NCBI GenBank assembly: GCA_044892505.1 | Contig: CM097883.1 | Location: forward strand, 183,644,001-183,708,000 | DNA: 64,000 bases | Origin: Schmidtea nova | Lineage: Eukaryota | Direction of reading: 5' to 3' | Shown: in pieces, positions 103 to 52,051 of the stretch | How positions within the stretch are numbered: the stretch's first letter is position 1 | Layout of the letters: each line of letters starts with the position of its first letter | Made by a program: the position numbers and the translations under genes | The notes under the pieces: generated by a model | What the model was told of the DNA's origin: nothing | The model's input: the letters and a program-made list of their open reading frames with translations, nothing else | Databases searched by the model: none

Positions 103-3100
103 GTAAATTAACCAGGATAAATGATGAATATTGTTACCATTTAGATATCCAAACAAATGATGGTGACAGTCTATCCGGTCAAACTGCTCTTTGAGCAGGC
201 ACTGAATTTGGAAAATGATGTGCAAAATATTGATAATGCACTTATGAAAATCAGCAAATATAGGCAGACAAATCTCACAGATAAAAAGCACGATATTCTC
301 GTTTTTATAAGGTAAAATATTAAAATTTATCTATTCAATAAACTCAGTAAAATCAGATAATTTTCGATAATTAATTGAGAAATTTTTCAATTATTAATAT
401 GATTTATGAGGACGATTAATTTCTTGATCGAAAATGTTTTCTGAAGAATTAATTGCAGTTTTTTTCTCGTGCAATTTTATAAGCCGTTCAGCCTTCACTC
501 TGGAAATTTGAATAATTGTTTCATAAATTTTCGTTTTGCAATTGTAAATTTTGATTTTTAAAAATAAAGTAATATTTTAAATTTGGCTATTAATAATATT
601 CAATTAAGATTAATTTATATTCTTTAGAAGTCCTTAATATGCTTCACAATTGATGGAATATTTGCAATTTCTTTTCTCTTTATTTACAAATGAATTGAAA
701 TTATCGAAAAAAAAATGATGAAACGAAGAGAAAATAAAATTTATTGCTTTAATGAAATAAATTATATATAAATAAATTATATATATATGTGTGTGTGTGT
801 GTGTACGTGTCTTGATTTGGTATATCGTTTTACTTATAATGGTTGCAATGCCATAAACATTGGAAAGACTATACGTCATCTCTGTATACGAGTTCAAGAG
901 CATGCCACAAAAACTGGAAATAACAATATTATTGAGCATAATAAGACATAAAAGAAGAAAATTCAATTATAAAATATTGTATATGGGTTTTAAAATCTAT
1001 TATAAACGTATAAATTGTGAGGCTTTGAATATAAAATCATTTAATCATAAAATAAATATTCAAAATTTAATCCCTATGTGCATTTCAGAGGCTTTAAATT
1101 ATTTTACTAGGATTATTAAAAGTCTAATTTGATTTTAAAATTTGATTATGTGTTTGCTATTAAATCTATAAATATGATCAGGTTTTTATTTGTTTCGAAC
1201 TTATTTATTATCTGAAGAAAACAACTGAGCTATTAAAAATATTTTTTTGAAAATGATGTTCTTTTATTTATTTGAATAACTTTCCATTATGATAACATTA
1301 CCTGGTCAGTCATTTTGACTGGCAAAACATTTATACTGATTCTTTCTATTTAAAAAAATACATTAGGGTAAATGAAGATTTAATCATCAACACTTGTCTA
1401 AATAAATAAATTTTGGAAATAGAATTTCCCAGCAGTTTTAATGTTAAAAATGCAACGAATACTTTATTTTGATTTTGAAAATTAACAAAAATTTAAAAAG
1501 GATGGTAGAATTTTTAGATTAACTTTATAAAGGGTATGGGAGCGTGTAATAAAGTATTATTATTTTATAAATGAATTTATTGAAATAATTTATTTTACGA
1601 AAATTTTCTTGAACTTCGAAATTTATATTTAGTGGTTTATCATTTTCTTACTATTCTGGAAGAACTTTCATGAAAGGAATGTGCCATTATAAGAAGTCAG
1701 TAGCGCTCATTACTGTAAGTATTAGAATTTTTACTTTTATTTTCTTTATTACTTTGAAAACATAATTTTTATAATTCTTTTCGTAATAGTTTTGAAACAA
1801 AAACTGGAGTCCTTGTTGCCATATAAATCAAATTTTTAAATTACTTCCAGTTTATTATTTATTTTTATTCTTTGAACAAGACCAACAATGTTGTGATATT
1901 GGCTGATAATGAAAATGACAATTGGACTGCATATTTATTTCACTCTTAAAATTTTATTTTATCAAAAAATGATATTTCTTATAGTATATAAATATTAAAG
2001 ATATAAGATGTAGATGATACCGTCCTTTTTACAAATGATGAAAACCCAACAATAACAGGCCATTTTAGAAGCGGGTGAGCTACACTTTCAGTGCTATAAC
2101 TGCCCACCCAGACCAGACCATTTTACTGTCATTAAATTGATTTAAACTTTATTTGAGAATACGATGCAAGTTATTTCCTCTCAAATTATGAAAACAACAG
2201 CTAAATACGTTTTGATTCTTTTCGATCTATTGCATTAGCCACATGCAGGGCCAATATATTTCCTTGTTCGATGATCGTGATCTCTGACCTTATCTGCAAT
2301 TTTATGTTTCATAAATTACAGTTTTCACGTGTACTGAATGAATATTTTTCATCCAATGTAAGTGGTATCATCGATTTTTCCCTCATTGATATTATGATGC
2401 TAAAAGGGTCGTGGTGGGAAAGAACAAAAGTCTGGCATATTATTTATTAGTAATATTACTAATAATACTAATAATACATTTACAAAATAATCAATACCAA
2501 CAAAACATCATTGAACGATTCGTTGAATTCCTAAACTACCAGCTGATTAAATCATTGACATTATTGGCATTATTGTGTGTACCTTTTATTANNNNNNNNN
2601 NNNNNNNNNNNNNNNNNNNNNNNNNNNNNNNNNNNNNNNNNNNNNNNNNNNNNNNNNNNNNNNNNNNNNNNNNNNNNNNNNNNNNNNNNNNNNNNNNNNN
2701 NNNNNNNNNNNNNNNNNNNNNNNNNNNNNNNNNNNNNNNNNNNNNNNNNNNNNNNNNNNNNNNNNNNNTATTATTTATGGACACATTCCAAATTCTATTA
2801 AGATAAAGTATGAGAGAGAAACAATAAAAATTAATTAATTAATTAAAAAACAAGATAAACAACTAATTAAAAATAAATAAAAATAAATATTAAATAAATA
2901 TCATAATTATTTTTTTGTTTCACTTTTGATCTTTTTTTAATAATAATATCAATAATTTCCATAATGGTAAGACTATAGATTAAAATTTCTTTTTTAAACG
3001 AGTACAAAAGTTTTCGGCACAGCCTTTATCAAATGTGACACACTTGATAGAGGCTGTGCCGAAAAATTGTGTACTTGTTTAAAAAAGAAATTTTAATCTT

Positions 3101-6100
3101 GTTGGATCCACCATTTGGTCAACAGTTAGATGTAAAAATAATAATAATAAGAAATAAATAGGAACAAATTAATATGAATATAATTACGAGAAATATCAGT
3201 AAAAACGAATTAAAAGTAATAAAAAATATTAATTTAATATCAAAAATTAGAAGAAAGTAAATGGAAAATATAAATGTTAAAGAAAAAATAATATTTAAAG
3301 CAAAATAAATAAGTAATAAAGAAAAAAAGAATTAATAAAATTCTTAAACCAAAACAAGAAAAGTTAACAATTTACAACAAAATCAATCGATTTTAGCTTT
3401 AATAAAATTTATTATTTGATGATCAGCTTCAACTTTGATCTGATCAGTATATATACTGATGCAGATCCAGACAAATTGAATGCTTATATGCTTATATGCT
3501 TATATGCTTTTATGACTTTAAGATTTGAAAATAATCATTAGGTATGAGTATTTTGTTTTTTTTTATTGTATGATTTTATCATTATGATTTTCTGACATTG
3601 CCATTGTGGTTATTTGCATTAAATTAATAAAATTTTTGAATATATTTTATTTTCTTTGAGATTTATTAAGCTTCTTCCACTGTGTAATCGGTGGAAGGAG
3701 ACGAAGGTATTCATATGTGTATTTATATTTTATTGAGCTTCTTCCACCGTGTAATCGGTGGAAGGAGACAACATTATTATATTATATTAACAATTAGGTA
3801 CAAGTATATTTTTTTTTGAGCAATTTTTGGTCGAGCTTCTTCCACTGTGTAAACGGTGGAAGGAGGCGAATTTATATTATATAGAGTAGTTATAGTAGAT
3901 ATACGTATGATTCAAGGGGCTCCGATCACCGTGAAATCGGTGAAATGGAGGCATACTGTGCCGAGTAGAATGACTGCTCCGTACAGTTAGGCCGTCCCAC
4001 TGGTGTAAAGGCGCCGCAAGGAGAGTAGGAATTTTTACTAACCATGATCACTAATAATTTTTATCACTGGATAGTATAACCAGTTGAAGTTTTATGTTAT
4101 AATAGAGTTGATTCTTATGAGTTTGAGTTGAGTTTGATTTTATTTTTGAGTCTAGAATAGATGCGATTATTATTGGTCAAATTTCACAATTGGATTAATA
4201 GAATGTTACCCTATTTTTCGATTGTCACATCTGGGGTTTGTGGGCATAAAGCGGCAGATACAACGTCTAGGAAATCATACAAAATACACCGTTAAATACT
4301 ATAATATCAAAAATCGATAACTTGAATAGCGTAGTGATCTACCACGCAAGTAGCATAGCACCAATAGGCTATAGGATCAAATATTCAACACATATAATTA
4401 ATATAATTGATTATCCTGAACCCTGTACATAGGGCAGTGGATCTTAGTTAATTTAAATAATTTCTTATCCTGATTGCTGTATGTAGCACAGGCATGAATA
4501 AATAAAATATATTATGAAACAAAGGTATCTGATCGCTGTATATAGCGACAGTGTTAAACGACAGAATGTGTTTTCATTTCTCTTCCTAGTTAAAATATGA
4601 AATCTGTAAAAATTCGGATCCAATCAAATTTATATTAATGGATAACTTTGATTCACAGAAAATGGCTAATACTCAAGCAGAATTGGACAAGGCGTGGCGC
4701 ATTATCCGCAGCCTCGAAAAGGAAATGTTGCGAAAATCCGAAAAAATAAAAGAGGCCGATGTTCTGATCTCAAATTTAAAGAAAAGCTGGTTCAGTCCAG
4801 ATCAAATGAAAGCGCAAATCCTCAAAACTCAACGCTCACAGCGAGCAAACAGCGAAATACAGATGGAACTGGATGCGACCAAGATGGAGCTGAAGAAATG
4901 CCTAAAATCTGTGACAGCTTCCTATCTCAATCAAGAGTTAAGGCAACTCATCAGACCAATTACCTATCAGCATTGGGCTGACGAGAAAGCAGGATGTTCA
5001 AAGGGAACGAACACAGATGAACCATCTCAGGTTCGAACAATAACAGTAGCAACCACACCAAAGAGCACGACCAATCCAGAAGGTAAAAAGAAGAAGAAGA
5101 GTAAGATGGGCGCGCGTCAGCGTCGCTGGAAGAAGCAAGTGCTCCAGCAATTGACACAACATTCGAAAGAAGTGCCCGAGATTGATCTAACAAGGGATTT
5201 TGCAATAACGGATGAAGACATCATTAAATATTTTGAATGATGACTTGAAAATTTTTAGTGTTATTAAATTGTGTATAAAAATTTAGTTTTGATTATAATT
5301 TTTGTTTTGTATTTATTTTAGTGTAAAGTATATGAAAATAATGTGATTTATTAAAAATTTAAAATAGTTTAAATGAAAATATAGATTATAATTAACAATA
5401 GGATTGACATAAAAATAATGAATAATAAGAGCATTAAAGAGATAACATATTGTAATTGATTAAAAATTATTTGTTGATATTGTAAAGAAAAGGGCTGAAA
5501 GAAAAGTTGAGAATTGAAATAAATTGTAAAGAAAGGGGGCTAAAAGAAACATTGAAATGAAAGATAATGAATGCGGATAGAGTAAAGTAAAGCGTAAGTC
5601 CTTCTATCGGCAGCGAGACGAACCCGTGAACATAAATGGGGAGTAGTTTTAGCAATAGAGCTCACCTGCCCATCATTGTTCAAACACCTTGCCCATTTCC
5701 AACTCGATTATTACTGGGAAATGATCGAGGGTGCTCGTGTGATATGTAAGCATTTTATGTTAGGTCTTGGATGGAGGAATCCCTAGAGCGTTTAATTCAT
5801 ATTTTATATTTTTGTTTTAACCCATCCAAAAACCACAACAATCTATAGTCTTACCATTATGGAAATTATTGATATTAATATTAAATAAATAAATAATAAT
5901 AAAAATGATGAATAGAAATAAATAATATTAAATAGTTAATTAATTAAAAAATTATTAAAAATATCTTTTAGCTACTGTCTTTAAATAAATAGTAAGAAGG
6001 GTACCAAAAAGTGGGTCTGTGTGCTTACATTTCACTGCTAATAAATCTAAAAAATAATTCTAATAAATTATCACTATTACTAAAAAACCAATAATAAATG

Positions 6101-18100: not shown

Positions 18101-21100
18101 GCTAATTCAGCATGTCAACTTTTGTTTGGAATGGATTTCCAATCAGCGAGAGAAGAGTGCTATTTTGAAAATATGAAAGGCACTTCATTTCAAGGACATT
18201 GTGGATATAGACCAAATATCACTAAGTCTTATATTGAATTGGAATATCAGTACTCTTATTGTTCACGCAAGTTGGTTATATTTCATTTATTACAAATAAA
18301 TTTTCAAAGTTTCGTAACAAAAAGAGCATTTTTCATAAATAATACAAAAATAATATAATATCATTTTCAGTGAGGTGCTCAGAAACCTCCATGCGGAAAT
18401 CAAAAAAATGTGAAATCCTCATATGACAGATTTATTTTTATTGCTTATCTTGTTAATATAATATGCAGACTATCTGCTTGAGGGGCTCGTAGTAATGGTG
18501 CACTTAGGGTGAAGGTTTTGGGTCTCAATCCCCCGTGGAAGGATTTGATCATAAAACCTTTAAAATTTGATAACTTTTACGAGTAGCATTTATTATAAAC
18601 TATAATAAGAAGCTCGGTGATTTTTTGACTCCCAATAATTCTGTAATTGAAGATAATGTAGTATTTCTAGAAGATAATGGATCCCGGAGCTTTAATTACA
18701 ATTATTTGAAGCCTTATGTATACGATAACAGAGTTTAAAACGTATTGAGAATAGAGTTCAATTGATCTTGAATCAAAGTGTTGAATCAAAAATATATTTA
18801 CTTTTTAACGTATTATTTGTGAAATGAGAAGATTATGTGACCTTTAACTCACAATGCTTAAGAAAAATGATCTTGCACTATATACCCTTATTCAATTTTG
18901 TTCTGACAGCTATATAAATAATATACTTTCATTTCATTATTTATCACTTTATAAATGAGTACAATGTTTACAATATCACTACAGTTTTACAGGCCGTCAT
19001 ATTGCCGGTCTAGCGTGGTGATTTTATTTTCAAAAAAGAAAAAATAATCCATCCAAAAAAGTGTTTATTTTTCAGTATGTGAGCCTCGTTACTTTTATTT
19101 GCAATTACATTGCACTCGGTTTCTTCTTTAGACAATAGACATAATATTCGTAAATTATATTCATTAAAACATATTATTCAAAAAATATTCATCAATAATA
19201 TTATTTGAAATATTTTTCTGAAGCATTGATAATTTTTATGAGCTTTGATTCAAACATTCTGTAATTCAACATACTGATTAAATTTTATATTTTCAATTTT
19301 ATTTATATTTTCAATTTTATTTTATATTTGAAATTAAAATTTTAAACTCTCATTTTTTGAATTTCATAAAGTTTTATAAACTTAATTTTTAAATCAATAT
19401 TTATTAAACTTATTTTATCAAATTTTTAAATATTTATATTAACACCTCACATCCCCCTTTTTTAAATCTTTCATCTTTTCGATATTTTATATCATGGTTT
19501 TGTCTTCTTCACCTCCTAAGAAATAGCTTCTTTCGTGAATTTTCTTTATTATTGTATATGGTCCTTCAAATTTTTCCTGGTCTTTATTTCGAATCTCACC
19601 CTTTATTAATACAGCCTCTCCTTTATTGAAATTTCTTATTGTTTTGATTTCTTTTGCGCTTGTTACTTCAATTTACTTGCTTTTTATCTTTCTTTCATTA
19701 TTTATTGAAGTACTGCTATACCATTTTGATCTGGTAATTCTCCTTACAAAAATTATTCCTGCCGGACTTGCTCCAATTGTTTTCTGTTTTGTCGCATTTT
19801 AGGTATATTCAATTTCCTGTAATATCTCTCCAAATTATTTTTGCTTTGTTATCTTAAAGACTCGTTAATATAATCACAGATTGTGCGAAACTGTCTTTCT
19901 ATTAATCCATTGGTGTTATGGTGATATGGATTTGAAAACACTATTTCGATTCCTGTTGACTTGGCCAATTCTTTTATATTGTTTGACTCAAAACATTTCC
20001 CACAGTCTACATACAGTTCTTTCGGTGCTCTTTATATCCATTTGTTTAGCAAAGTTTTCAATATTGTTTTTTCATCTTGTTTAGCTCTAACAGACAGAGA
20101 AATGTATTTACTGTAATGTTCAGTGATACCACATATGTATCTTTTTCTATTGATTGTTTCCTTCATTGGTTCACATATATCCATAATGATCATCTCACTG
20201 AATGCTGCTGAAAAATCACCATCTTCAATTCGCACATTCTCATTTGACTGATCCAATCTCTCAGCCACACACGATACATCTGCAATACCTGGAAAAGATA
20301 CATCAGTCTTGTCAATTTCATGACCTCCCAGCATCCCTATTACGTCCATTCCTAAGATCATATAAACATTTACCGGTAGATTCATCAACGAGAAACAATC
20401 ATCACTCAATAATTTACCATCAACAATCAGTTGAACGTTCACATCACACATACATCTGACTAGTGATCCATCCGCAGTCATGATACTCCCATTCCTTATA
20501 AATCGTTTCTTCGCAATTCTGGCTGACACGACTGATTTGGAACATCCCGAGTCGATCAATGCTTTCACGGACTCCCCATTGATCATGACAGAAATAAACT
20601 GCAACGCCATTATGTTCGTGCTGGAGTAGACGCTGGCGCATGCGTTACTCCTTTTCCATTTCCCGACTCTGAATTTTTGGTGCACTCCTTTGCAATGTAG
20701 CCCTCTTCTTCACATCGCCAACACTTCTTTCTTTGTTTCTTAAAGCAAATTTCTTCTAAATGGCCATTCTTTCCGCAATATAAACATTTCTTTTGCTTGT
20801 CTTGTTTTCCCACAACAGCCAAACATAGTTCCATAGTGTCGCAGTTTACTAAAACACGGGACTGTTTCAAAACATCAACAAGAGACATCTGCTGAATCTT
20901 GGCATTGGATCGTAACTGTTGTGACGTTGCTGTTGGCAAACCCATAATGAATGCGCTTTTAATTAAAATCTCATTATCTATCTTGGCCAATGATGCTAAG
21001 TTTTTGAGATCATTCAAATATACATCGACTGGCTCATTGCTCTACGGAAGTTATATTGAATGTTTACGTTGTTTAAATATTCAGAGTTGGCAGAATTATT

Positions 21101-24100
21101 TAATTTAATAAAGTTTTAATATTGTAATCTTATTTTATTATTATTCATTGGTTTTAGATTTTATATATAACAATAAAAATATAACATGGCGTCACGAACT
21201 GAAAAAGAATACTTGCAGGAATACTTATTTAAAGATAAGTTATCAAAATTAATTATATTCAAGAAGCGAGGAACCAACGTTAAAATTGAAGATCATTTAA
21301 TTCTTTTCAAAAGTTTTGTTGATCAGTTTGCCAAACACAACTTGGTAACGGAGGAAGAAAAAATTAAAGTATTTTTAAAATACTTTGACGAAGAAATAGT
21401 TAAAGAGATCGAATGCTTAGGAGATATTAGCACAACTAGGACCATAGACTGGTACGAAGAAAAGATTCTAAAAATCGTAGAGATTAAAAGGTCAAAGACC
21501 TCAATAATTATAGATATTCTCGGCGACACCAGACAAGAAAGAGATGAGACTGTAGTAGATTTTGCAAAAAGAGTAAGGATGCGATGCCTAAGTTACGAAG
21601 GAGAAAAAGAAAAAATGATGATACATACCTTTATAGAAGGTTTGAGAAACCAAACTCTTTCGGTAGCCTTGAAGATCAGAGAGCCAAAAACGTTAGAAGA
21701 AGCTATAAAAGAGATAAAAATGGAGCATGTTGGCGTAAAAGTAAAAGAAGACGAGTATAATTAAGTTAGAAAACTGGCGACAACGGACGAAGGGACAATA
21801 AATATCTTAAAAAGAGAAATTGATAGGTTGAACAAGAATATTGAAGAATTGAGGAAGGAACAATTGAGAAAACCGAATAAAAATCCGAGAGAAGTAAGAG
21901 AAGACATTTCTTCCTATCAGCAAAACGTTACATGTTTTAAATGTAACAAGGAAGGGTATATAGCGAGATTTTGCCTTAAAAAAGATGACAGTGGAAACAT
22001 TGATACAAGGACGTGCTATAAGTGCGGAAAAAGGGGACATATAGCAGCAAATTGCAAAATTGGTACAAATAGGATGAATGTGATTAAATGTTACGAATGC
22101 GGTGGTGGTCATTTGGCTAGATATTGTGACAAGAGAAATAAATTCAGATATTTCCAAGAAGAAGATGGAGAGGAAGAGGATGGTTCAGCGAGAGGATCAA
22201 AAACCGATTCTGAAGATGACAAGCATATAAATAATATAACAGAAGTAAGATCTGATAAAGGGACGAAGAGACCAAATGAAAATTTAGAAGAAAAATATGC
22301 AAATTATATAAACGGTGAAGGGGAAAAACCAAAGAAACTGTTACAAAAATACCAGTCTACAGTTATCTCTAGTAGCAGGCCGGAAAAAGCGAGGAATAAA
22401 CCAATAACTGAATGTTATATTGGACATCAGATGGTTAAAGTTATGTTTGATACGGGTGCAGATTTAAATGTTATTAGCCAGGAGTTGACAGATAAACTAA
22501 TAAACGCAAATCCAACCATAAAGGTGTATAATTCAAAAACAAGAGTTACATGTGCCTATTGGAAGCTCAATCGAATGTGCAGGTAAAATCCAGCTAAACA
22601 TAGCAATAGGACAGATTGTGACAAGTCATGTATTTGACATTATGCCAAATATATTCCCACATGTTTATATCGGGATAAGAAGTATGAAGAAATATGGAAT
22701 TATCAATAATGCACCAGAAGACTGCATAGAGATCCAAGGAATTAGGTTGCCATTCTTATCAAAAACTATTCCAGCGGCTTCTTTAAACGAATCCCAACTG
22801 TATTAGAGAGTCGTAATACGGTTAAAGGGAGAGAAGAGGCTTGGGGGGACGGTTATCAGGATTATTATAGAGTTATTGTATCAAGTAACGTACAGATTTA
22901 AACAGTCGTAGAGTATTTTATCAGAGGAATGGCAATAGATAAGCAGAACAAGAGATTAAAGAATCTTAATCAAAGTTGTGTGTTTAATGGTGAAAGAGTC
23001 AAAATGGCAGAGAGAAATTTTGATAAGTGATTACGTGCTTAAAGTTGATGAAGGATATGTATTAGTAAAAATTGATAAGATGGAAGGCGGTATTAAACAA
23101 TTGCATGTAGGAACCACTTTAGGTTACAAAGAAAGATTTTACGATAAAATGGCAGAAAAGGCTAATATTGGAAGTATGTCATCATTAGAACAGCGAAGAG
23201 AAATCACGACCATCGATAAAATATTACGAAGCATAGAAGATTCTTTAGATCATTCTATTAAATATAGCGAAAGAAAGGAGTTAGTGAAAACAATAGAAGA
23301 AAATAAGGATGTTTTTAGTAAATATAAAATGGATATTGGGAAAAGTACATCACTATCTCATGAAATTGACACTGGGAACGCTCGGCCAATTGCTTTTAAA
23401 CCGAGGAAGGTACCATTAGGTCTGGAGGAAGAGGTTGACCACATGGTACAAGATTTATTAAGAGCTGGAATTGTGAGACCGAGCAAGTCAGCGTGGAATT
23501 TTCCGATTGTGGTTGTTAGGAAAACGAATGGTGATATTAGAATGTGCGTCGATTATAGGGCACTGAACGCAAAGACGGCAAGACCAATCTTTCCAATACC
23601 AGCTGCGGAAGATCTTTTTGATACACTTGGAGGAGCAAAGTTTTTCTCTACATTAGATCTATCAAGTGGTTACTACCAAGTACCAATAAAAGAAGGTGAC
23701 ATAGAGAAGACAGCTTTTAGCACAAAGTATGGACAATTCGAATTTACACGAATGCCATTTGGATTATGTTCCGCGCCGGCCACTTTTCAAAAGCTTATGA
23801 ACATGGTCTTGAGAAATGAAAATTGGATTAAGTGTGTCGTATATTTGGATGATGTTCTTATATTTGGGAGAACCATCGAAGAATATAATCAAAGATTGAA
23901 CACTGTATTACGCCGAATTAAAGAGTCAGGACTGAAATTATCACCAGCTAAGTGTTCATTTTTAAAAACAGAAGTTAATTATTTAGGACATGTCATCAAT
24001 GAGAATTGGGTAAAAACTGACCCAGAGAAAATTGAGAGTATACGATCATGGAAAATGCCAACATGTAAAAAAGAATTGCAGACCTTCTTAGGATTTTGCA

Positions 24101-27100
24101 ATTATTACCGTAGATTTATAAAAATTTATGCAGCGACATCAGAAAAATTGAGTTCAATGTTAAAGAGTGAAAATAATTTTGTGTGGAATGAAGATAGAAA
24201 AGGAGCATTTTACGAACTTAAAAGCAGACTGTCAACGCCACCAGTGTTGGCCTTGCCAAATAAGGAAGGCGAATATATACTGGACACAGACGCTTCGCAC
24301 AATAGTATGGGAGCCGTTTTGTCACAGAGACAAAATGGAGAAGAAAGAGTTTTGTGTTATGCATCAAAAACCATGAGTAAGAGTCAGAGAAAATATTGTA
24401 TAACAAGAAAAGAACTATTGACAATATATACGTTTGTGCTGAAATTTAAACATTATTTGATGGGATCAAAGTTTTTAGTGAGAACGGACCACCAAGCGCT
24501 GAAATGGTTATTGAAATGGGATAATCCAAACACATCACAATACTGTGTTTGGAGAGCCGAACTAGAAGTCTACGACATGGTTGTCGAATATAGAAAGGGC
24601 GAAGAACACATAAGTGCTGATGCGATGTCCAGGTTACCTCCATGTGAACAATGCTTACTTAAGCATAAAGAACCGATGAAGCGTCGAAACGTAAAAGTAT
24701 ACGATGAATTAATAGATGTAAAAAGGACAGGAAACGACGATCTAGAATCAGAAAGGGTTTTGTGCGAACTGAAAGTACATGAACATGATTGGGGACAAGA
24801 CGATGATGTCGACATACAAACCATAATTAAAAGGATGAAACGTTCAGATTCTGAAAATGACAGAAACGTAGAAGAGATAAGAAGAGGTAGCAAAGAATTA
24901 CAAACAATATGGGCACACAGAAAAAAACTAAGGATCAGGGGCGATCTACTTTATATCCAGGAAGATAAAGAATACAGATTGATACTCCCGAAATTAAAGA
25001 GGAAAGAATTAATAATACAATTCCACAGTTTTCTAGGACATCCCGGAATCGAAAAAACCTATCGAATAATAAAGAATGAATATTATTGGCTTAATATGGA
25101 GTCTGATATATCAGAAGTAATAGGAAAATGTCAAGAATGCGCACACAACAAAAATAGAAACGGTAGAATAAGGGCACCATTTCAAAGCATAATTGGAGAA
25201 AAACCTTTTCAGATAATAGCAATGGACATAACAGGACCGTTCAAAACAACACAGAAAGGGTTTAGGTATATACTGGGTATAATCGATTACTTTTCGAAAT
25301 ATATAAGTTTAATACCAATGAGAAATATCGAGACAGAGAATATTCCAGAAGCGGTGTGGTCGCAGTGGATTTCAAAATTTGGAGCACCAGAACAAATACA
25401 TTCAGATTGTAGAAGTAATTTTCAATCAAGATTGTTTGCCGAATACTGTAAAATATTAGGAATTAGGAAGACTTTTACCTCACCTTACTACCCACAGAGT
25501 GATGGACTGGTAGAACGACTATTTGGAACTGCAAAAAGTATGATTGCAGCAGTGTTAGAAGAGAAGAAGAGCAAAGACTGGAGTGTAGTATTACCAGTAA
25601 TAGAGTTTGGATTAAGAACTACAATACAAAAATCAACGAATTATTCACCATATGAAATAGTATTTGGAAATCAAGCAAGATTACCCATATCAGCAATAAA
25701 GGTTAATACGAGACATTTTCAAGACTATGACGATTACGTCCAACAGCTGCAACTAAATTTATCAGATATTCACAAGAAAGTACGAGAAAATATGGATAGA
25801 CAAAGAGAGTGTATCGTCGCAAGATATAATCAGAATCGATGGCACAAAGAATTGATAGTAGGAGATAAGGTAATGATAAAGAATGAAGACAGGAGGGGTT
25901 TCGAGAAGAAGTATATAGGGCCATTCATAATAGAAGAAATAATGGATAAATGGACCTATGTGTTATATAGTGACAAAGCTAAAAAAAGAATAAGAAGAAA
26001 TTATAATCAAATAAAAGTAGTAAATGACGAGGGAGATTCTTGTAGAGTAAAGCCAACCAACACTAGTATTTGGTCAAGGGAACCGAAGACCAATTTAAAA
26101 CCGACGAGAAGATACCCATTACGGACGACGAGAAATCAGAAACCTAAGTACCGTTCGGTTGCCAGCGAGGGGATGTGATATAATTAATGAATTAATTATA
26201 TGCATAAGTTATATTGAATGTTTACGTTGTTTAAATATTCAGAGTTGGCAGAATTATTTAATTTAATAAAGTTTTAATATTGTAATCTTATTTTATTATT
26301 ATTCATTGGTTTTAGATTTCATATATAACAATAAAAATATTACAGTCATATGCTTGGAACATATCTATGGAATAGACATCGATCAGGGCATGTTCGATCT
26401 TCAATGCGTTGCCCTTGTCTTCCGCACTCAAATGCTGATATACTGCGAAAGCTGGTCTATCTAGGTATAACGGAATAATTGATTCTAAATCCACGATTTT
26501 CTGAATTTTTGCCACTAGCTTCACTTTCTGAATCCACTGTTGAACGTCACCTTCTCCTCTGAAAATAGGGATCATATTGTTCATATCAAATTATTCTCCA
26601 TTCAATCTACCAAAATGATTTCACTATCCAAATCTTGACAAAAACTACACTGCTTAGTTTTTGTAACTCTTTCATTTTTTAAAAACTAAATAGAAATTTC
26701 AAATATTTTATATGAAAAACAGATGAGATGACTCAAGTTTTGATTGATTTCAGGTCTACAATTTTTCTGTTTAGATGAAATTCATTGTTATACTATTTTA
26801 TTTTTCTTTTAACGATTTTATCGACCTTCCTTCTTCACGATTGTTTCTTTACTTAATTTCGGTAAATTTAAGGTTCGTTGAATAATCGTTTTTTTCAGTG
26901 CTATCTTCATTGATTTATTTATCCATCGTACTCAACTAAGCGACCCATAAATACAATATTATTCAAGTTATTTAGAGATAAATTACTATTTATAGTGTCA
27001 GTAATTATTTAATTACTATTTTGANNNNNNNNNNNNNNNNNNNNNNNNNNNNNNNNNNNNNNNNNNNNNNNNNNNNNNNNNNNNNNNNNNNNNNNNNNNN

Positions 27101-30852: not shown

Positions 30853-31744
30853 AGCAGTAGAATGTGAGTCAATCAGATATAGGTCAAGGCCCCCTCTAGA
30901 ATTTTTTTATGTAGGTCAATTTAAGAACATTTTACCGTCAAATCTTTTGCTTAAGGGCACCTTAGGTGTAAAATGTATGCCAAGGTTGATTTAAGGTCAT
31001 TTTAAGGTAATTTTAGATGAAATTTATGGTTTAAGGGCACTTTAAGGATAAAAAAGAATCAAGGTCGTTTTAAGGACACTTTAAGGAAAATAGGTAAAGT
31101 TCGTATTTCAGGTCACGATGAGGAAAATTAAGTAGGTCAAATATGTTTAAAGTGAATTTAATGTTAAATTAAGGAGGTCAAATACAATTTTCAAAATTTT
31201 TCTGTCAGAATTAAATACGTCGATTTCAGGTCAGGATGAGGACAAATTAAGTAGGTTGATAATAATAATAAATTTTTGTATGTCAAAATTAAGTAGGTCA
31301 AATATAATTTTCGAAATTTTTCTAAGTCAGAATAAGGAAGGCTATTAAAAATTTTCGAAATTAATCAAAGTAAGAATTATGTAGATTAATAATAATTTTC
31401 TAATATTTCTATGTCAGAATTTAGTAGGTTAATAATAAATTTCGAAATTTTTCCAAGTCAGAATTAAGTAGGTCACTTTAAGGATACTTTAAACTCCACA
31501 AAGTAGGGCAAACATAATTTTCAAAAAGTTTATGTCAGAAATAAGTAGGTCGAATATAATAATTTTCGATGTCAGAATTAAGTAGCTCAAAAATAAAAAA
31601 AATTTGAAAATGTTTTCTAAGTAAGAATTAACTACTAAGTGACACAACATTTTGTGACTAACATGGCATTGTAAGTACAAGTTTAATAAAGGCAATGCAA
31701 TCAAGCTGAAATATTAACAAGGTAAGTAAAGAGTAATTTGATTC

Positions 31745-31804
<60 letters not shown>
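31745..31804. repeat. (TAA)n microsatellite
   Basis: Direct reading of the sequence. Confidence 0.95.
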
Positions 31805-31806
<2 letters not shown>

Positions 31807-31951
31807 TTTTAAAACTTTGATAATAAAATTTTAAAATTAACACTAGTCAATAAATCGAAACTATAATAAAAATTTGGACAAGAAAAAACTAAATTAGATA
31901 ATATTAAAATTTATTAAATAAAATTTATGTAAATCGTGCACTGTCAATTCT

Positions 31952-32269
31952 CTAAATTGGAGTTATATTATCTTTTGTATCTACTTTATAACCCTGAATA
32001 ATTATATTAGTGAACCAGTGTTCTTGATCCTTGTATTCGATTGATTGGAACGCATCCTGGAAACAAGTTTTTCTGTTGTTGATGTAAATTGTTTCTTTGC
32101 TACTTAAACTTTTATTGATTTTCAATAAAACTTTATTTATTGCAACAACATCTTCTTTAGATATACTTGCAGCTAAACTGACATACAATAACTCTGTTAA
32201 TTTGACCGGGTACGATAATCTAAAAAGTATTTCTTCTACAAAGAAATAAATTTTATAGTCATGATACAT
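31952..32269 (-). CDS. Maverick accessory ORF, unknown function
   Basis: 105-aa ORF inside the TIRs; no family recognised. Confidence 0.35.
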   Translation of the reverse strand: MYHDYKIYFFVEEILFRLSYPVKLTELLYVSLAASISKEDVVAINKVLLKINKSLSSKETIYINNRKTCFQDAFQSIEYKDQEHWFTNIIIQGYKVDTKDNITPI

Positions 32270-32669
32270 TTGGACTGGTTTGAATTGTGTCTTGATTTTT
32301 CTTTTAATTTCTTCTTTCTTGCTTTCTTCACCATTGATTGTGTTGTTAAAAATTTTATAAGTAGGAAAATTTTGTGATGATGTTAAATTTGTGTGATGTA
32401 GTTAAATGTTTTAGTTAGTGTCTTTATTTAAAATGTTTAAGTATTTAGTTAATGTTTATATGTCTTTAGTTATTTGTCAAATTATTTAAAAACTATTTTA
32501 ATAAAGAAAACAGCTATATAAATAAAAAACATATTACTATTTAAAAACTTATAAACAAACTAAAAAACGAATTATAATAAATTTATTAAATGAAAACTAA
32601 AAATGGTAAATACAAATGATAACACATAAAAACCTAAATAATAACAATAAACATATATACTATATTCAG

Positions 32670-32888
32670 TTATTGTTGTGGTGATGATTGATTGCAATCT
32701 GTCATCTCATGATTACATTCGTCATAATCTGGAAGATCATCAGAAATCTTGCGATGACATTCATCAAAATCAGGTGATTCTGTCGATTCGTCGCATTGTG
32801 AAGATTAATCACATTGAACTGATTCGTCACATTCTGATGGAACCGGACAATCAACGGATTCATCAAATCCGGAGTATAATTGGGCCAT
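32670..32888 (-). pseudogene. Small acidic Cys/Asp/Glu repeat ORF (MAQLYSGFDESVDCPVPSECDESVQCD*SSQCDES...)
   Basis: Repeated (E/Q)CDES and DEC units; one internal TAA. Confidence 0.45.
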
Positions 32889-32967
32889 CTTTTAGGTTCT
32901 TCGTCTTCTTCTTATTTTCTAATTTTGCGGATTCTAACTCGAATCTTTTCAGTTCACTCAGCAGATT

Positions 32968-33165
32968 TTATATACGGAACCTCTCAATTCGGTCGGTACA
33001 ATGCCCCCATTGATAGGCACACAGTATGTGCTCGGCCATGAAAGGGATCTCAACATTCAGATTTGCGAGGTGGTCCAGCAATATTTGATTGATGTCTATT
33101 CCCGTAATACACTGGATATTATACAGGAATAGTTCGGGTGCTGTGTAAATCAGCTGAGTCATCAA
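32968..33165 (-). CDS. Maverick accessory ORF (HILCAYQWGHC), unknown function
   Basis: 65-aa ORF in tandem with neighbouring accessory ORFs. Confidence 0.4.
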   Translation of the reverse strand: MMTQLIYTAPELFLYNIQCITGIDINQILLDHLANLNVEIPFMAEHILCAYQWGHCTDRIERFRI

Positions 33166-33364
33166 ATTGGGGAATATTTCTTCCAGTTTGTTTTAATTTT
33201 TCATCACTAATAAATTCCTTGCATCCCATAATTATAAATCTCCCGGTCTTAACATATATTATAGGATATTTACAACTTCTTTCAATAATTTGCTGTGGTT
33301 TCCCCTTTAAGAAATTCATGTGAGATACATCAGTTTTACCCTTATAATTTATGTTGCTAGTCAT
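33119..33364 (-). CDS. Maverick accessory ORF, possible TBP-like fold fragment
   Basis: SNINYKG and IIYVKTGRFIIMGCK resemble the TBP repeat motif (LIF.SGK.V.TG.K). Confidence 0.35.
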   Translation of the reverse strand: MTSNINYKGKTDVSHMNFLKGKPQQIIERSCKYPIIYVKTGRFIIMGCKEFISDEKLKQTGRNIPQFDDSADLHSTRTIPV

Positions 33365-33434
33365 TACTTTAATGAATATTTTTTAAATATGAAAACAACA
33401 ATAACAACTATTATTTAAAATAAATATAAACAAC

Positions 33435-33471
<37 letters not shown>

Positions 33472-33493
33472 TGAAAATTATAAAATTATAAAT

Positions 33494-34105
33494 ATGGAAT
33501 TAAGAAATGATGCAGTGTTTCAAATTGTTGGCCCGAGTGGAAGTGGAAAAAATTTGTTTGTTTGTAAATTATTACAATCAAAATTATTCAAGTCTTTAAT
33601 TTAATAAAATTTATTGGCAAAAGGGATGAACATGGATTGACTCAAGATCAATTTTGTAAAATAAAAATGACAATCATAAAAGGTTTCGATAAATATTGGT
33701 CATTTAGATTTCGACAAGGTGATGTTATTATTGATGACTTGTATCAAGAAGCAAATAGAGAAAAGGATTTATAACTTATTTACAAAAATTGCTAAACACA
33801 AAGGTGTTACAGTAAGTTTTATTACTCAGAATTTATTTCACAATGGTGACAGTCATCGAACTCGTAATTTGAATTTTCAATATCTAGTTGTTTTTAAAAA
33901 TCCTAGAGATGCAGCAGTTATTGATTTTCTTGCAAGACAAGCATGCCCATCTAATCCTTATTTCTTGATTGATGCGTTTCAAGATGCTACAAAAGCTCTT
34001 CATGAATATCTTTTTCTTGATTTCATACAACAAAGTTTATATGATTTAAGAGTTAGAACAGATATTTTCAACCAGGAAGGAGCCATCGGTTATAAACAAA
34101 GTTAA
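33494..34105 (+). pseudogene. Maverick packaging ATPase (FtsK/A32-like), frameshifted
   Basis: Walker A GPSGSGK, Walker B IIDDL, ITQNLF and FKNPRD motifs. Confidence 0.92.
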
Positions 34106-34446
34106 TTAGATTTATATTATCAATCATGTTAATGAAATCTTAAGTAAAGTTTTTGCGTTTGATAAATGCTAGAAAATCGCAGAAACTAAAAAAACAAAGA
34201 AATTTGGAGAAAAAACCAATTGCAAAGAATAGTTATAAACAACCGAAAAAATTAATTATGGATAATATTTCGCAGAATAATCGCATTAAAAATACTTTAA
34301 AACCAAAACAAATACATCATCGTAGTTTCCCATTTTTTACTTAAAGCCCCAAGTATTAGAAGAATGAGTATTTTACAATCATTTCCTAATTACGTTATTG
34401 ATGATTTATTAGTAGGGGAAAGTGAGCGCACAGCCCCACTTTTTTT

Positions 34447-34905
34447 CAACTAGCAACGGTTGCTAGGGTAAATACACACATCAAGATATTCCTCAATTCA
34501 GGTGATGCCAGGGTGAACGTGCACACACATCAATATATATATATATATATATATATTCCCCGATGAACCTGTTGCCAGGGTAAACACACACACATCAAAA
34601 TATTCCTCGAGACAGGTATTGCTAAGGTAAGCACACACATTACTATATAATCACCGGGGAGATGTTGCTAAGGTAAATACACACATCAAGATATTCCTCA
34701 ATGCAGGTGTTGCTAGGGTAAACACACATCAATATATATTCACCGAGGATCCTGTTGCCAGGGTTAACACACACATCAATATATTCCTCGAGGCAGTTAT
34801 TGCTAAGGTAAGCACACACATTAATATATAATTACCGGGAAGATATTGCTAGGGTAAATACGCACATTAAAGTGTAGTGCATTGGAATCTGTTGCTAAGA
34901 TAAAC
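34447..34905. repeat. Subterminal tandem array (~45-50-bp units, GTTGCTAGGGTAAAYACACACATCAA), left arm
   Basis: About ten diverged units; mirrored, with extra units, at ~43735-44390. Confidence 0.9.
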
Positions 34906-37766
34906 ACGCATATTTTTAAAAATCATATTTAAAAAACATATTTTTAAAAATAAATAATAAAAATGTATGTTATTGTTATAATAATAAAAATAGTATTTGT
35001 AATGAATAAATAATATTATAAATAATAATAACAATAACAATATTAAAAATTTTACAAATAACAATAAAATATTATAAGAATAACAATATTATTACAAAAA
35101 TAGAAATATTAATAATACTTATGTTATTGTTATTAATGTAAATATTAGAATAANNNNNNNNNNNNNNNNNNNNNNNNNNNNNNNNNNNNNNNNNNNNNNN
35201 NNNNNNNNNNNNNNNNNNNNNNNNNNNNNNNNNNNNNNNNNNNNNNNNNNNNNNNNNNNNNNNNNNNNNNNNNNNNNNNNNACAATATTATTACAAAAAT
35301 AACAATAGAAATACTAATGTTATTGTTAATAATATTAATATAAGACTAATGATTAAAATAATGNNNNNNNNNNNNNNNNNNNNNNNNNNNNNNNNNNNNN
35401 NNNNNNNNNNNNNNNNNNNNNNNNNNNNNNNNNNNNNNNNNNNNNNNNNNNNNNNNNNNNNNNNNNNNNNNNNNNNNNNNNNNNNNNNNNNNNNNNNNNN
35501 NNNNNNNNNNNNNNNNNNNNNNNNNNNNNNNNNNNNNNNNNNNNNNNNNNNNNNNNNNNNNNNNNNNNNNNNNNNNNNNNNNNNNNNNNNNNNNNNNNNN
35601 NNNNNNNNNNNNNNNNNNNNNNNNNNNNAAATATTATTATGAAAAATAATAATAAAAATAATACGTAAAATATTAAAAGAAAAATAATAATAAAAAAAAA
35701 ATTAATAATAAAAATATTAAAGTATTTGTTATTAATATCAATAATAATTATTACATATAAATAATAATGTTAAAAACAATAATAATGGTAATAATGAATT
35801 AATAATAGTAATAATGGATGAATAATAATGTTAAAAATAATAATAATTATGGTAATAATGNNNNNNNNNNNNNNNNNNNNNNNNNNNNNNNNNNNNNNNN
35901 NNNNNNNNNNNNNNNNNNNNNNNNNNNNNNNNNNNNNNNNNNNNNNNNNNNNNNNNNNNNNNNNNNNNNNNNNNNNNNNNNNNNNNNNNNNNNNNNNNNN
36001 NNNNNNNNNNNNNNNNNNNNNNNNNNNNNNNNNNNNNNNNNNNNNNNNNNNNNNNNNNNNNNNNNNNNNNNNNNNNAAAATATTAATAGAAAAATTAATA
36101 ATAGAAATGGTAATGCCATTGTTTTTAATAACAATAATGATAATAAAAATAATAATAAATNNNNNNNNNNNNNNNNNNNNNNNNNNNNNNNNNNNNNNNN
36201 NNNNNNNNNNNNNNNNNNNNNNNNNNNNNNNNNNNNNNNNNNNNNNNNNNNNNNNNNNNNNNNNNNNNNNNNNNNNNNNNNNNNNNNNNNNNNNNNNNNN
36301 NNNNNNNNNNNNNNNNNNNNNNNNNNNNNNNNNNNNNNNNNNNNNNNNNNNNNNNNNNNNNNNNNNNNNNNNNNNNNNNNNNNNNNNNNNNNNNNNNNNN
36401 NNNAATTTGATTATTTAAATACACTTAAGAATAATAAGAATAATATTTATACAGATAATTTAATTATATATAAAATATCACAAGAATAGCATTATTATTA
36501 CAAAAATAACAATAGTATAATAAATTAGTGTTAACGTTATTGTTGTTATAAAAAAAGATAATAATAAAATCATAGTAAAATAATAATCATAATAAAAAAA
36601 AAATAAGAAGAATAAGAAGAATAAGAAGAATAATAAGAAAAAAAATAAGAAAAAAAAACAATAAGAAAAATAATAATAATAAAAGATTATTAATAAAAAA
36701 TGTTATTGTTATTAATATAAGAATAAGAATAATAATGATAATGATAAAATAATAAGAAAAATTATAATTATAAAAAATTATTAATAAAAATGTTATTGTT
36801 ATTAATATAATAATAAAAATTATAATTATAATGATAAATAAATAAAGAATAATAATAATAATAATAAAAAATAATAAAAATAATAATGGTAATAATGTTA
36901 TTAATAAAATTTTAATTATTAAAAATAAAAATAATAATGATAATAATAATAATTTTTACTAATTATATTTAATAATATATTATTATTTATTAAAAGAACT
37001 TCTTTAAAAATTAATTGATATTAAAGTTCTTGTTATAAGATCATTATCTAATAATTAATATAAAATATTTAATAATAATTACAATAATAAAAATTTAAGT
37101 AAATAATTTTAATATTATGAAAAATAATAATAATTGATTTCAATTATTATATTCTTAACTAGAATTGTTTTAATAATTAGTAAACACAAAGATGTAAAAT
37201 TTAAATTATTTACAAGTAATTTAAAAATATTAATTTACTATAATAATTTTCATATAGAACATATTATTTGCTATGATAGAAAATAAATTATTTATTAATA
37301 ATTAATTTACAAAAACCTTAATTACTAAAAAATTTGTAAAAAATAAAACAATAAGTAATATTAATCAATATTCAAATTAATTTTATATTCAAATTAATTA
37401 ATTAATTATTATAAAAAATTAGAATAATTATAATTAAAACTAGAATTGTTTTAATAATTAGTTATAAAATAAAAATTCAAATTCAAAAATTGTAAATAAT
37501 TTTCAAAAATTAGTAAACACTACAAAACTAATTAAAAAATAATTAATAATTTAAATAATATAGTTAATTATTTTAAGTTCTCATTAGTATTTATTAACTT
37601 ATCTATGATAAACATTACAAATCTCTTTGAATAATAAATAAAGATTATCCGTTAAATTACAAAATTGATAAAGAAAACTAATTATTAAATAATTTAAATT
37701 AATATTTATATACAAAGGTAATTAATTATAAATTGCAATCATTAAATAAATTATTAAAATACTTAC

Positions 37767-37937
37767 AGTTACTTTCTTTTCTCTTTTCATCGTTAAATTT
37801 ATTTTCTTTTGGATTATCCATTGTTTCAGATGTTTCAACATTGTAACCAATAAAGTTGTTCATATTGTTGTCGACATCGTTGTTGTAATCATTGATCATG
37901 GTAATATCCATATTGTTGATGTTGTTGTTCATTTTAT
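37767..37937 (-). CDS. Spliced Asn-rich exon at the centre of the foldback element (MNNNINNMD...KRKESN)
   Basis: 48-nt GTAAG...TTTTAG intron at 37985-37938 upstream; ATG at 37932; GTAAGT donor at 37766. Confidence 0.5.
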
Positions 37938-38330
37938 CTAAAATAAGTTGATTATTTAAAAAATTTAAAACAAAAATTAACTTACCAAATTTAGGTTGCA
38001 GTAAAAAGTGATTCTCAAATGAAAAACTATTGTTTATATACTAAATTCAAAACTTTTTAAACAATCAAATTCGAGGAAACATACGCACACGTTTGTAAAT
38101 ACCACAGTGTAATTTATTTTTACAATTAAACTTTTTAAAAATTATTAAACACATAATTTATTGTCATAAATATATGTCATCATTTAATGATAAATATCAA
38201 TTATTATTAAAATACAATGTAATAAATTAAGATTAATTTTAAAGTTAAATTACACTAATAAATTATAAAAATTATTACAAGTAATTAAAATCAAATAAAA
38301 AAAAAAGTTTAATTATTCGATAAATTGTAA

Positions 38331-38420
38331 ATTAATTGAAATAAAAATTAATTAATTGAAATAAAAATTAATTAATTGAAATAAAAATTAATTAATTAAA
38401 ATAAAAATTAATTAATTAAA
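38331..38420. repeat. 20-bp tandem repeat (AATTAATTGAAATAAAAATT) x4-5 in the foldback spacer
   Basis: Direct reading of the sequence. Confidence 0.85.
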
Positions 38421-41252: not shown

Positions 41253-41283
<31 letters not shown>

Positions 41284-50009: not shown

Positions 50010-52051
50010 TGTTGGATCCACCATTTGGTCCACATTTAACATAAAAATAATAATAAGAAGAAATAAATAAGACTAAATTAAAATTAATATAATTGCGAGA
50101 AATTTCAGTAAAAACGAATTAAAAGTAATAAAAGATATGAAGAATATTGAAAAATTAGAAGAAATAGAATTGAAACTGTCAAAACTGTTAAGGAAAATGA
50201 TATTTAATTATATTTAAATAATAAGAAAGTGAAAAAAATAAGTAATAAAGAAAAAGAATTAATAAAATTTCTGTAAATTAAAACAAGAAAATGAAAATCA
50301 TATTTGTTGATAAAATTGATTTTATTTTTAATAAAATTACATTGATGACCATCAGATTGATGCTGATTGGTCAATGAACTGATCTGGTCAGTATAAATAC
50401 TGATCCAGATTCAGATTAAATTAATGATTTAAGTGTTTGAATTTTGACATAAATTTTGAGTTTATGCTTCAGAAGAATTTTTGTTTTCAAGAAAATTTAT
50501 AAAGGTATGCAGTTTGATATTTTTATTGTTATTGTTATATAATTCTATTACGATTTTTCTGTCATTGCATTAATTCATTTAATAAAATTTTATGAATAAT
50601 TCTAGTTATATTTTTTTTAATTTTTATTTGTTCAAGCTTCTTCCACTGTGTAATCGGTGGAAGGAGACAAGGGTATTAGATTATTTATATTATTCAGGAT
50701 TATATTTTGGTCGAGCTTCTTTCACTGTGTAATCGGTGGAAGGAGGCGAATTTATATTATATATTGTATTTAAGTATAGATATGTATTATTATGCAAGGG
50801 GGCTCCTGAACATCGTGAAATCGATGAAAGGAGGCATACTGTGCCGAGTAGAAGACTGCTCCGTACAGTTAGGCCGCCCAACTGGTATAAAGTGCCACTA
50901 GGAAGGTAGGATTTTACTAACCATAAATGCTAACATTTTTTATCACTGGATAGTATAACCAGTTGAAGTTTGATTTTGAGATACTAATTGATTTGATTAT
51001 TATCGAGTTTACTTCACCTTTGGATTAACAGAATGTTACCCTATTTTTACGATTGTCACATCTGGGGTTTGTTGGCATAAAGCGGCTGATATAAAGTCTA
51101 GAAATAAATATAAAATACACCTTTGAACGAAATAATACAAGAAATCGATAACTTTAATAGCGTAGTTCAGTGATCTACCACACAAATAGAGCATCAGCAA
51201 TGGATCAAATATTCAACACAGATAATTCATAATGAAATGTAATATATTATCCTGAACCCTGTACATAGGGCAGTAGATCTTAGTTATTTTTAATAATTTA
51301 TTATCCTGAGTGCTGTACATAGCACCGGCGTGAATAAATGAAATAAATTATCAAATGAATGTATCTGATCGCTGTACATAGCGACAGTGTTGAAAATATA
51401 ATATGTATATTATTTCTTTTCCTAAATTAGAAATTAATAATCGTAGAAATTATGAGAATTATTCAACCAAAAACCAAGTTCATATTGATAAACCATCTTG
51501 AATTCTAGAAAAATGTCAATCAAATCAGTAACTCTTAAATCAGAATTAGACAAGGCTTGGCGTATTATCCGCAGCCTTGAGAAGGAGATATCGAATAAAT
51601 CCGAAAGAATAAAAGAAGCCGACATCACCATAGCGAAGTTACAGAAGAGCTGGTTTAGCCCAGACCAAATGAAGGCACAACTCCTCAAGAATCAACGCTC
51701 TCGACAAGCGAATGATAATATAAAATGGAGCTAGAAGCAACAAAAATGGAGTTGAAAAAATGCTTAAAATCGGTAACGGCTTCTTACCTCAATCAAGAGT
51801 TGAAACAGCTCATACGTCCTATCACGTATCAGCATTGGTCTGAAGAGAAGTCAGGCTGTTCGAAAGGGACAAATACGGATGAACCATCTCAGGTTCGAGT
51901 AATCCCAGTACAAACTACACCAAAAAGCATAGAAAATCCGGAGGTTAAAAAGAAGAAAAACAAGATGGGCGCACGTCAGCGTCGTTGGAAAAAGCAAGTC
52001 CTACAACAATTGATACATCATTCAAAAGAAATACCGGAAATCGACTTAACT
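50010..52051 (+). mobile_element. Second, diverged LTR-A copy, 3'-truncated
   Basis: Same TGTTGGATCCACCATTTGGTC start, hairpin arrays and ORF; homology ends at a junction with the Tigger ORF. Confidence 0.88.
51498..52051 (+). pseudogene. LTR-A ORF copy 2 (1-nt frameshift at ~51722; runs in frame into the transposase start)
   Basis: ELDKAWRIIRSLEKE...KMGARQRRWKKQVLQQL. Confidence 0.85.

Follow-up and report, generated by a model that had tools for sequence, protein, structure and literature searches.

A locus in the genome of Schmidtea nova raises the question of whether an open reading frame (ORF) lying entirely within the long terminal repeat (LTR) of a retroelement is a genuine gene and, if so, what its product might do for the element. 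The locus lies in a 64,000-nucleotide stretch of the forward strand (GenBank assembly GCA_044892505.1, contig CM097883.1, positions 183,644,001 to 183,708,000; hereafter the window), for which an initial annotation made from the sequence alone had reported a 2741-bp TG...CA unit with a 4-bp target-site duplication (TSD), devoid of gag and pol and containing an intact 200-codon ORF (4638-5240). Re-reading of the sequence bore out each of these points and located the basic motif of the annotation in the 4638-5240 frame. The unit occupies 3100..5840 on the + strand, starts with TGTTG and ends with CAACA, is bounded by the duplicated tetranucleotide ATCT (3096..3099 on the left and 5841..5844 on the right) and has neither gag nor pol anywhere in 3100-5840. 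We show below that its ORF is a real protein gene under purifying selection and that the unit represents a solo LTR derived from a giant gypsy element of the Burro type, and we then consider how the gene is likely to be expressed and what its product may do.

Comparison of 84 distinct intact copies, chosen in part by protein similarity, places the invariant start at the ninth codon of the frame (Met9, position 4662), Met1 being present in only one third of them. The gene accordingly defined spans 4662..5240 on the + strand and codes for 192 aa, in a frame that is open from 4638. The pairwise ratio of nonsynonymous to synonymous divergence (dN/dS) across this set is 0.089 at a median dS of 1.19, a value near saturation and derived from pairs that are not independent. 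The initial annotation had held that a dN/dS near 1 would speak against a gene in the LTR of this invertebrate element, and the figure of about 0.09 over 84 copies is far from that. Constraint varies along the protein, with dN/dS of 0.05 and 0.045 in two helical cores and 0.64 in the linker, and it is strongest in the Arg-rich basic motif, KKKKKSKMGARQRRWKKQ (5085..5138, +), where residues 150-170 give 0.019. In an ORF-blind sample of 55 LTR starts, taken from the first 100 of the 359 genomic occurrences of an exact 17-mer from the LTR start (contig C1, mostly one LTR per pair), a match to the ORF occurs within 3.3 kb of 43 and the frame is intact in 36, so that the ORF is retained by most sampled LTRs of the family. 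Fifteen 5'/3' LTR pairs, considered as a neutral control, differ by only 4 synonymous and 5 nonsynonymous changes, too few for use. A profile of the family run against long stretches of the elements recovered LTR copies only, and never gag or another internal ORF, which disposes of the concern that the frame might be a displaced gag or accessory ORF.

By sequence comparison the gene is also older than the LTR family of the window. We designate this family lineage 1, and lineages 1.5, 2 and 3 are related LTR lineages in the same genome, of which the first two carry LTR homologues at 31-39% identity. The homologue in the 3.3-kb LTR of lineage 2 is 194 aa long, is 35% identical over 145 residues (E 2e-23) and shows a dN/dS of 0.16 across 18 copies; lineage 1.5, reached from other LTR starts, is intermediate, and its homologue is 39% identical. 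The proteins of all three gene-bearing lineages have WF.P..(M/I)K, L..V..S and EL...IRPIT.Q.W in common. The basic motif is retained across this distance, in the versions KMGARQRRWKK, RIGSKRRRQRK and RMGSRQRRRRR; its general form is (M/I/L)G(A/S)(R/K)xRR, with G, R and R invariant over the three lineages, and the motif is richer in Arg in lineages 1.5 and 2 (KHRMGSRQRRRRREF). The LTRs of lineages 1.5 and 2 contain, upstream of the homologue, a second ORF of 157-174 aa with its own acceptor (L155:7358-7831 on the - strand, L187 near 1290-1790 and L192:1272-1793), which is Trp/Cys-rich and has no Pfam match. Lineage 3 has an LTR of 1731 bp without the LTR protein gene, a spacing of about 11.5 kb and, in the one interior examined, only a gag-like ORF, and is likely non-autonomous. 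An example of it is found at L199 and L200 (contig C1, 51.55-51.57 Mb), and a pattern mostly picking its 3' block has 433 matches.

Outside this genome we recovered no relative of the LTR protein among 5.8 billion proteins, either with the single protein or with the three-lineage profile, or among longer proteins, this last being weak evidence; the lineage-1 profile likewise found none among 1.84 billion representative proteins. Searches of PDB sequences, BFVD and PDB folds gave no match, Pfam gave nothing above cut-off, and the best ESM Atlas score of 0.89 was treated as a lead only. A Pfam PC-Esterase match under the cut-off was rejected, as was a link between the LTR protein and the lineage-3 Gag through a shared weak EAD9 match, which failed on direct comparison.

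Could the frame nevertheless be a chance or dead one, or a remnant of gag? The window itself offers a point in favor of this, in the form of a second, diverged LTR copy (50010..52050, +) whose ORF is not intact: it has a frameshift near 51720, and a pogo/Tigger-type transposon (HTH_Tnp_Tc5 + DDE_1) truncates the copy at about 52050; furthermore, 7 of the 43 ORF regions in the blind sample are disrupted or partial. This copy is about 75% identical to the window LTR at the DNA level, and 139 of 171 aligned residues are retained in the protein (81%), in keeping with the roughly 80% given by the initial annotation, whose listed synonymous codon pairs between the two copies are indeed present. However, a dN/dS of 0.09 with saturated synonymous sites, the homologues in two other lineages and the failure of the profile to match any internal ORF make this explanation barely credible, and the selection data already refute it.

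In the 1.25-Gb genome, a search with the protein gave 8768 first-look candidates, of which the best 150 were scored; many of these 150 form same-strand pairs about 22 kb apart. Full-length elements with two such LTRs, which the initial annotation had wished to see for the assignment of a superfamily, exist, and we examined four two-LTR copies along their length. Their LTR pairs are 99.1-99.97% identical over aligned bases, and a primer-binding site, presumably tRNA-Pro-like, directly follows the 5' LTR. Clear 4-bp duplications flank three two-LTR relatives (A, B and D). The same LTR flanks elements of 22-28 kb, the spacing in full copies being 25.3-25.5 kb, and full copies show the domain order gag knuckles (CCHC), fusion glycoprotein, protease (PR), reverse transcriptase (RT), RNase H (RH), integrase (IN) and ankyrins. 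The env-like Monjiviricetes_fusion domain (E ~1e-71) precedes PR and RT in a single open frame (L100), and RING and TRAF/MATH ORFs lie on either side of the polyprotein. The TG...CA ends, the TSD and the terminal position of the same unit in full elements identify the window unit as a solo LTR, and the PR-RT-RH-IN order, the in-frame env between gag and protease, the ankyrin, MATH-TRAF and RING cargo and the giant size identify the element as Burro-type, because this arrangement matches the description of planarian Burro/GYPSM1 in the text of a review (PMC6431247): about 28 kb, a CCHC gag, an in-frame env-like fusion protein between gag and protease, RT-RH-IN, ankyrins, and TRAF/MATH and RING ORFs. 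The elements differ in that the TRAF/MATH ORF of Burro/GYPSM1 is upstream of or inside ORF1 (PMC6431247) whereas here it is downstream; the LTR here measures 2.7-3.3 kb, and the review text mentions no gene inside the LTR. Pfam scans of the element reported no BIR, BCL2-like or dUTPase-like domains, no dedicated test having been made for these.

Several further observations concern this element family. The solo LTR of the window was inserted within an arm of a very high-copy palindromic repeat (2960-3099 and 5841-5870), and contigs with the empty form of the site join about 3085 to 5841. Two deletion classes have propagated beside full elements (L031-L044, L100-L103). One retains env and protease and has lost 3.0 kb with RT-RH-IN, the frame staying open over the joint in L039 (junction L039:6118-6134), and occurs at 41 places at no more than 1 mismatch; the other retains pol and has lost 5.4 kb with env (junction L042:4611-4619; 8 places). 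The pol-less and env-less classes could complement each other, or full copies may support both. Between the RING ORF and gag there is an array of 71-bp tandem repeats that varies in length (L038:4944-5918, L036:1471-1693), and ten LTR 5' starts cluster at 0.7-2.2 kb spacing on contig C1 at 275.21-275.23 Mb (L104), resembling a tandem array of LTR fragments.

To understand how the gene may be expressed we examined the LTR for conserved promoter, splicing and polyadenylation motifs. A TATA box at 3448-3455, placed inside a palindrome (3437..3470, +), is the likely LTR promoter: TATA(A/T)ATA occurs near LTR position 385 in 35 of 37 copies, and ATTGG lies upstream of it in 34 of those 35, although it is absent in the window copy. 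At the equivalent place lineages 1.5, 2 and 3 have GTATAAATA. The GATCAG-TATA-CTGAT palindrome together with the ATTGG box is found in the three gene-bearing lineages, lineage 3 having a different flank. Downstream, AG|GTATGA (3540..3547, +) is the likely first splice donor, with an intron starting at 3542; despite variable spacers, the donor word AG|GT(A/G) is found 85-171 nt after TATA in all 35 TATA-matching copies. Candidate poly(A) hexamers, ATTAAA/AATAAA, at 3618..3631 (+) might mark the end of R, A(A/T)TAAA being found about 73 nt after the donor in most copies; the poly(A) position is the weakest step here, because such hexamers are common in AT-rich DNA. In the foamy virus LTR, too, a splice donor precedes the poly(A) signal (PMC3694450), comparable to the order of donor and candidate poly(A) signal in the present LTR. 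The likely acceptor is a CAG at 4656..4658 (+), 3 nt before the conserved ATG: all 84 copies have a YAG, either TAG or CAG, 3-4 nt ahead of the ATG, and in 22 of another 23 copies, mostly of lineage 2, the distance is 1-5 nt. The RING ORF, a 368-aa ORF and the second LTR ORF also have a YAG 0-5 nt before their ATG. Spliced-leader trans-splicing as the use of this acceptor is disfavored: flatworm spliced leaders terminate in AUG (PMC12582326), and the acceptor-ATG gap is 4 nt in 22 of the 84 copies and 5 nt in lineage 2, so that the leader AUG would fall out of frame.

Taken at face value, these motifs would give as the simplest anatomy a short U3 with transcription starting near 3480, followed by a 1.1-kb intron (3542-4658) containing every hairpin described below, which would put the gene in U5 or a long R rather than in U3. 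The comparison with MMTV sag and HIV nef offered by the initial annotation would then point to the wrong place, since the motifs set the gene downstream of the LTR promoter. The converse arrangement, in which the real promoter lies in the conserved 3' block and the ORF is in U3, expressed only from the 3' LTR via a far-upstream donor in the manner of those two genes, appears improbable to us. It draws on the fact that conservation within the LTR is highest in the 3' block, with CATAAAT in 36 and GTAAGT in 37 of 37 copies, and on the unusual length of 2.2 kb that U5 or R would otherwise have. This block (5575..5790, +) includes a donor-like GC|GTAAGT at 5594, is 98% conserved in lineage 1 and forms a structured RNA common to all lineages, with two-sided changes in 5 of 23 pairs across them; no Rfam match was found in it or elsewhere in the LTR. 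Its ATAAAT word directly enters the covarying RNA stem and is therefore unlikely to be a TATA box, whereas a canonical TATAAATA lies near the LTR 5' end in all four lineages, with ATTGG upstream in three.

The initial annotation had further proposed that the protein is paired with hairpin arrays just upstream of its gene (3670-4555). These proved to be of two kinds. Covariation within lineage 1 taken by itself is weak, two-sided changes being seen in 1/30 and 1/26 pairs. Four A-type hairpins with the loop UG(N)AAU (3671-3700, 3738-3767, 3836-3865 and 3920-3950, +) are real as structures of the + strand, with folding z-scores of -6.5/-5.1 on + vs -5.1/-3.0 on -, and their changes are G-U tolerant with one two-sided change; array A is found in lineage 1 only and is absent from lineages 1.5, 2 and 3. 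Three bulged B-type hairpins with UGUANAUA loops (4415-4437, 4469-4492 and 4529-4551, +) follow. Array B as a whole does not exceed shuffles (z -1.2), and the case for it rests on covariation of its stems between repeats, with 33/36 and 32/36 contexts paired vs 7/36 and 4/36 when slid. A pattern for the B-hairpin has 791 occurrences in the genome; the loops are UGUANAUA in 327 of 336 cases, loop base 5 being C, U, G or A, and the loop of B2 in the window copy deviates (TGTATGTA). Array B is common to lineages 1 and 1.5 and missing from lineage 2. As the Pumilio recognition element has the consensus UGUANAUA with a free fifth base (PMC11602169), array B looks like a set of host Pumilio-type sites, albeit atypical when compared with the usual 3' UTR (untranslated region) sites, being half-paired in hairpins and probably in a 5' intron.

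A two-hairpin module between the arrays (3950..4022, +) is the best candidate for a cis-element, either a packaging or a response element, because it is kept in deletion types and in all lineages. In each of the four lineages, the gene-less lineage 3 included, the fold is found 258-363 nt downstream of TATA, the lineage-1 module being equated with the others by position and fold, not by sequence. Across lineages 1.5, 2 and 3, 5 of the 9 pairs in its second hairpin have changed on both sides. Four sampled LTR deletion types lose the ORF along with some or all of array B, and keep array A and the module; two of the four sit in both LTRs of an element, although the sampling is limited and deletions of this sort can occur during the final round of copying.

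The AlphaFold monomer of the protein (pLDDT 73, pTM 0.27) has predicted helices at 2-43 and 46-96, a short helix at 102-109, a disordered linker, a basic helix at 151-168 and an acidic tail, and the basic region lies about 45 disordered residues beyond the coiled coil. The last 32 residues include 8 acidic and 3 basic ones with many bulky hydrophobics, and all three lineages have a similar tail. A two-copy model supports dimerization, predicting a parallel homodimer over residues 4-87 with a score of 0.53 vs 0.00 for the best control, agreement of at least 73% of contacts between runs and a pLDDT of at least 62. In microbes, 21 of 30 solved pairs attain the dimer mark and none of 23 single chains does; in eukaryotes, 17 of 29 pairs attain it (7 of 16 in animals), again with none of 30 single chains.

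Taking these observations together, we tentatively favor, with somewhat less than even confidence, the reading that this is a selected LTR accessory gene, likely spliced from the LTR promoter, whose predicted dimer binds unspliced element RNA through the Arg-rich motif for nuclear export, in the manner of Rev and CERV. Transcription would start near 3480, and joining of donor 3542 to acceptor 4658 would remove a 1.1-kb intron with the candidate poly(A) signal and all hairpins. Genomic RNA would keep this intron, and several downstream accessory ORFs would use their own acceptors; as the genomic RNA must retain the intron while the accessory ORFs seem to need splicing, a switch between spliced and unspliced forms would be needed. 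The protein would be a trans-acting factor, its most plausible target being the two-hairpin module (3950-4022), with host Pumilio reading array B. The ORF is absent from both LTRs in two elements and from lineage 3, which fits a trans-acting product, and a small predicted dimer with a strongly constrained Arg-rich motif that is dispensable in cis fits a Rev-like role. Several points weigh against an export regulator of this kind. Neither Pfam, PDB sequences and folds, BFVD nor the large protein sets connected the protein with Rev, Tat, Rex or CERV by sequence or by fold. The lineage-1 motif is half lysine and could be a mere nuclear or nucleolar localization signal; alignments judged by eye showed no clean conserved leucine-rich export signal, with a partial pattern in the C-terminal tail only; and generic likeness may be enough for a long coiled coil to pass the dimer test. 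Of 8 internal ORF contexts, only 3 have an acceptor adjoining the ATG, the TRAF, 189-aa and gag starts lacking one, and two junction patterns, which cover only part of the sequence variants, found 0 spliced genomic copies. The module is also present in the ORF-less lineage 3, as expected of a Gag packaging signal, and may equally be one. Finally, lineage 2 keeps the protein without array A or B, and with array B resembling host Pumilio sites, the pairing of the protein with the 3670-4555 arrays is not upheld.

Two other roles account for part of the same evidence. The protein might be a host-directed accessory factor akin to the TRAF, RING and ankyrin cargo, with the motif serving solely as a nuclear or nucleolar import signal and the hairpins being read by Gag and host proteins such as Pumilio. 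This we consider doubtful, though it would sit well with the many host-interfering domains of Burro elements (PMC6431247), with the B loops that fit UGUANAUA with a free fifth base, and with a two-hairpin module that outlasts the gene and arrays that do not track it across lineages. What it explains poorly is the strength of constraint, which is unlike that of a fast-evolving host-conflict protein: constraint is tighter on the basic motif than on the coiled coil (dN/dS 0.019 vs about 0.05), and a Gly and two Arg are kept at 31-39% identity. Such constraint exceeds the usual needs of an import signal. The product could, on the other hand, be a transcriptional transactivator, acting like foamy Tas on DNA or like Tat on nascent RNA, with the basic helix possibly at the TATA palindrome and the tail as an activation domain. 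The acidic-hydrophobic tail, similar in all three lineages, lends itself to this, as does the palindromic site, which suits a predicted dimer and accompanies ATTGG in all three lineages that have the gene but is missing from the ORF-less lineage 3. That contrast, however, depends on a single ORF-less lineage, the placement of the basic region after about 45 disordered residues is unlike bZIP, and no DNA-binding fold was matched in BFVD or PDB folds; we regard a transactivator as unlikely.

Setting the Rev-like reading against known systems brings out both likenesses and differences. HIV-1 Rev with its RRE, HTLV Rex, HERV-K Rec and MMTV Rem are small basic regulators that form oligomers, are made from spliced mRNA and have a structured RNA target. 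The LTR protein is likewise small, basic, a predicted oligomer and likely made from spliced mRNA, with structured RNA in the part removed by splicing; it differs in having no sequence or fold similarity to them or clear leucine-rich export signal, in its 85-residue coiled coil, and in that its binding site is a candidate only. Foamy Tas is likewise basic and has an acidic tail; its gene lies outside the LTR and is read from an internal promoter, whereas the present gene is inside the LTR. MMTV sag and HIV nef are protein genes within or overlapping the LTR, in U3, whereas the present gene, judging by its motifs, is downstream of the TATA box and behind an intron. The initial annotation had thought a self-encoded RNA regulator in an invertebrate LTR element possibly undescribed, and in this it was anticipated: CERV of the C. 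elegans element Cer1 is a self-encoded gypsy protein made from spliced mRNA, needed for export of unspliced genomic RNA and predicted to be a multimer (PMC10309623). The protein described here, in contrast, has 192-196 aa, is encoded wholly inside the LTR and combines a coiled coil with an Arg-rich motif, features predicted from sequence. An abstract-level survey of the literature gave no report of a Burro-LTR gene or of a gene with an intron in the U5-side part of a gypsy LTR, although Grohme 2018 and the review figure may already draw such ORFs. The element type and a self-encoded export regulator in a gypsy element (CERV) are known already, and the LTR gene is a real, selected, orphan family in an unusual place.

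The window holds other features. An ordinary, unrelated gypsy element (21048-26344) has 139-bp terminal repeats that are 98.6% alike and encodes gag, PR, RT, RH and IN, and large nested inverted repeats surround very AT-rich arrays at 30858-47708. ORFs at 33722, 45013, 46041 and 46943 are reminiscent of ATPase, integrase and capsid pieces of a Polinton/Maverick; Pfam gave no support for this.

LTRs are usually treated as non-coding and solo LTRs as dead remnants, yet hundreds of LTRs in this genome keep a selected gene without a database relative, apparently with its own promoter and intron, and repeat annotation hides what is a large multi-copy gene family. Burro elements in planarians are expressed, and are silenced by PIWI (PMC8532177). 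If the LTR protein is a regulator of RNA export or of transcription, control in the style of complex retroviruses would have arisen in gypsy elements a second time after CERV, from an unrelated origin. A bolder extension, which we offer as speculation and think unlikely in its entirety, is that each LTR is a self-contained, intron-bearing gene unit, with promoter, donor, an intron full of hairpins and acceptor, encoding a new family of dimeric Arg-rich regulators that operate a Rev-like switch for a complex, retrovirus-like element of an invertebrate. Full, pol-less, env-less and gag-only derivatives could then all draw in trans on protein made by hundreds of solo LTRs, and the intronic Pumilio sites would tie the RNA of the element to host stem-cell control.

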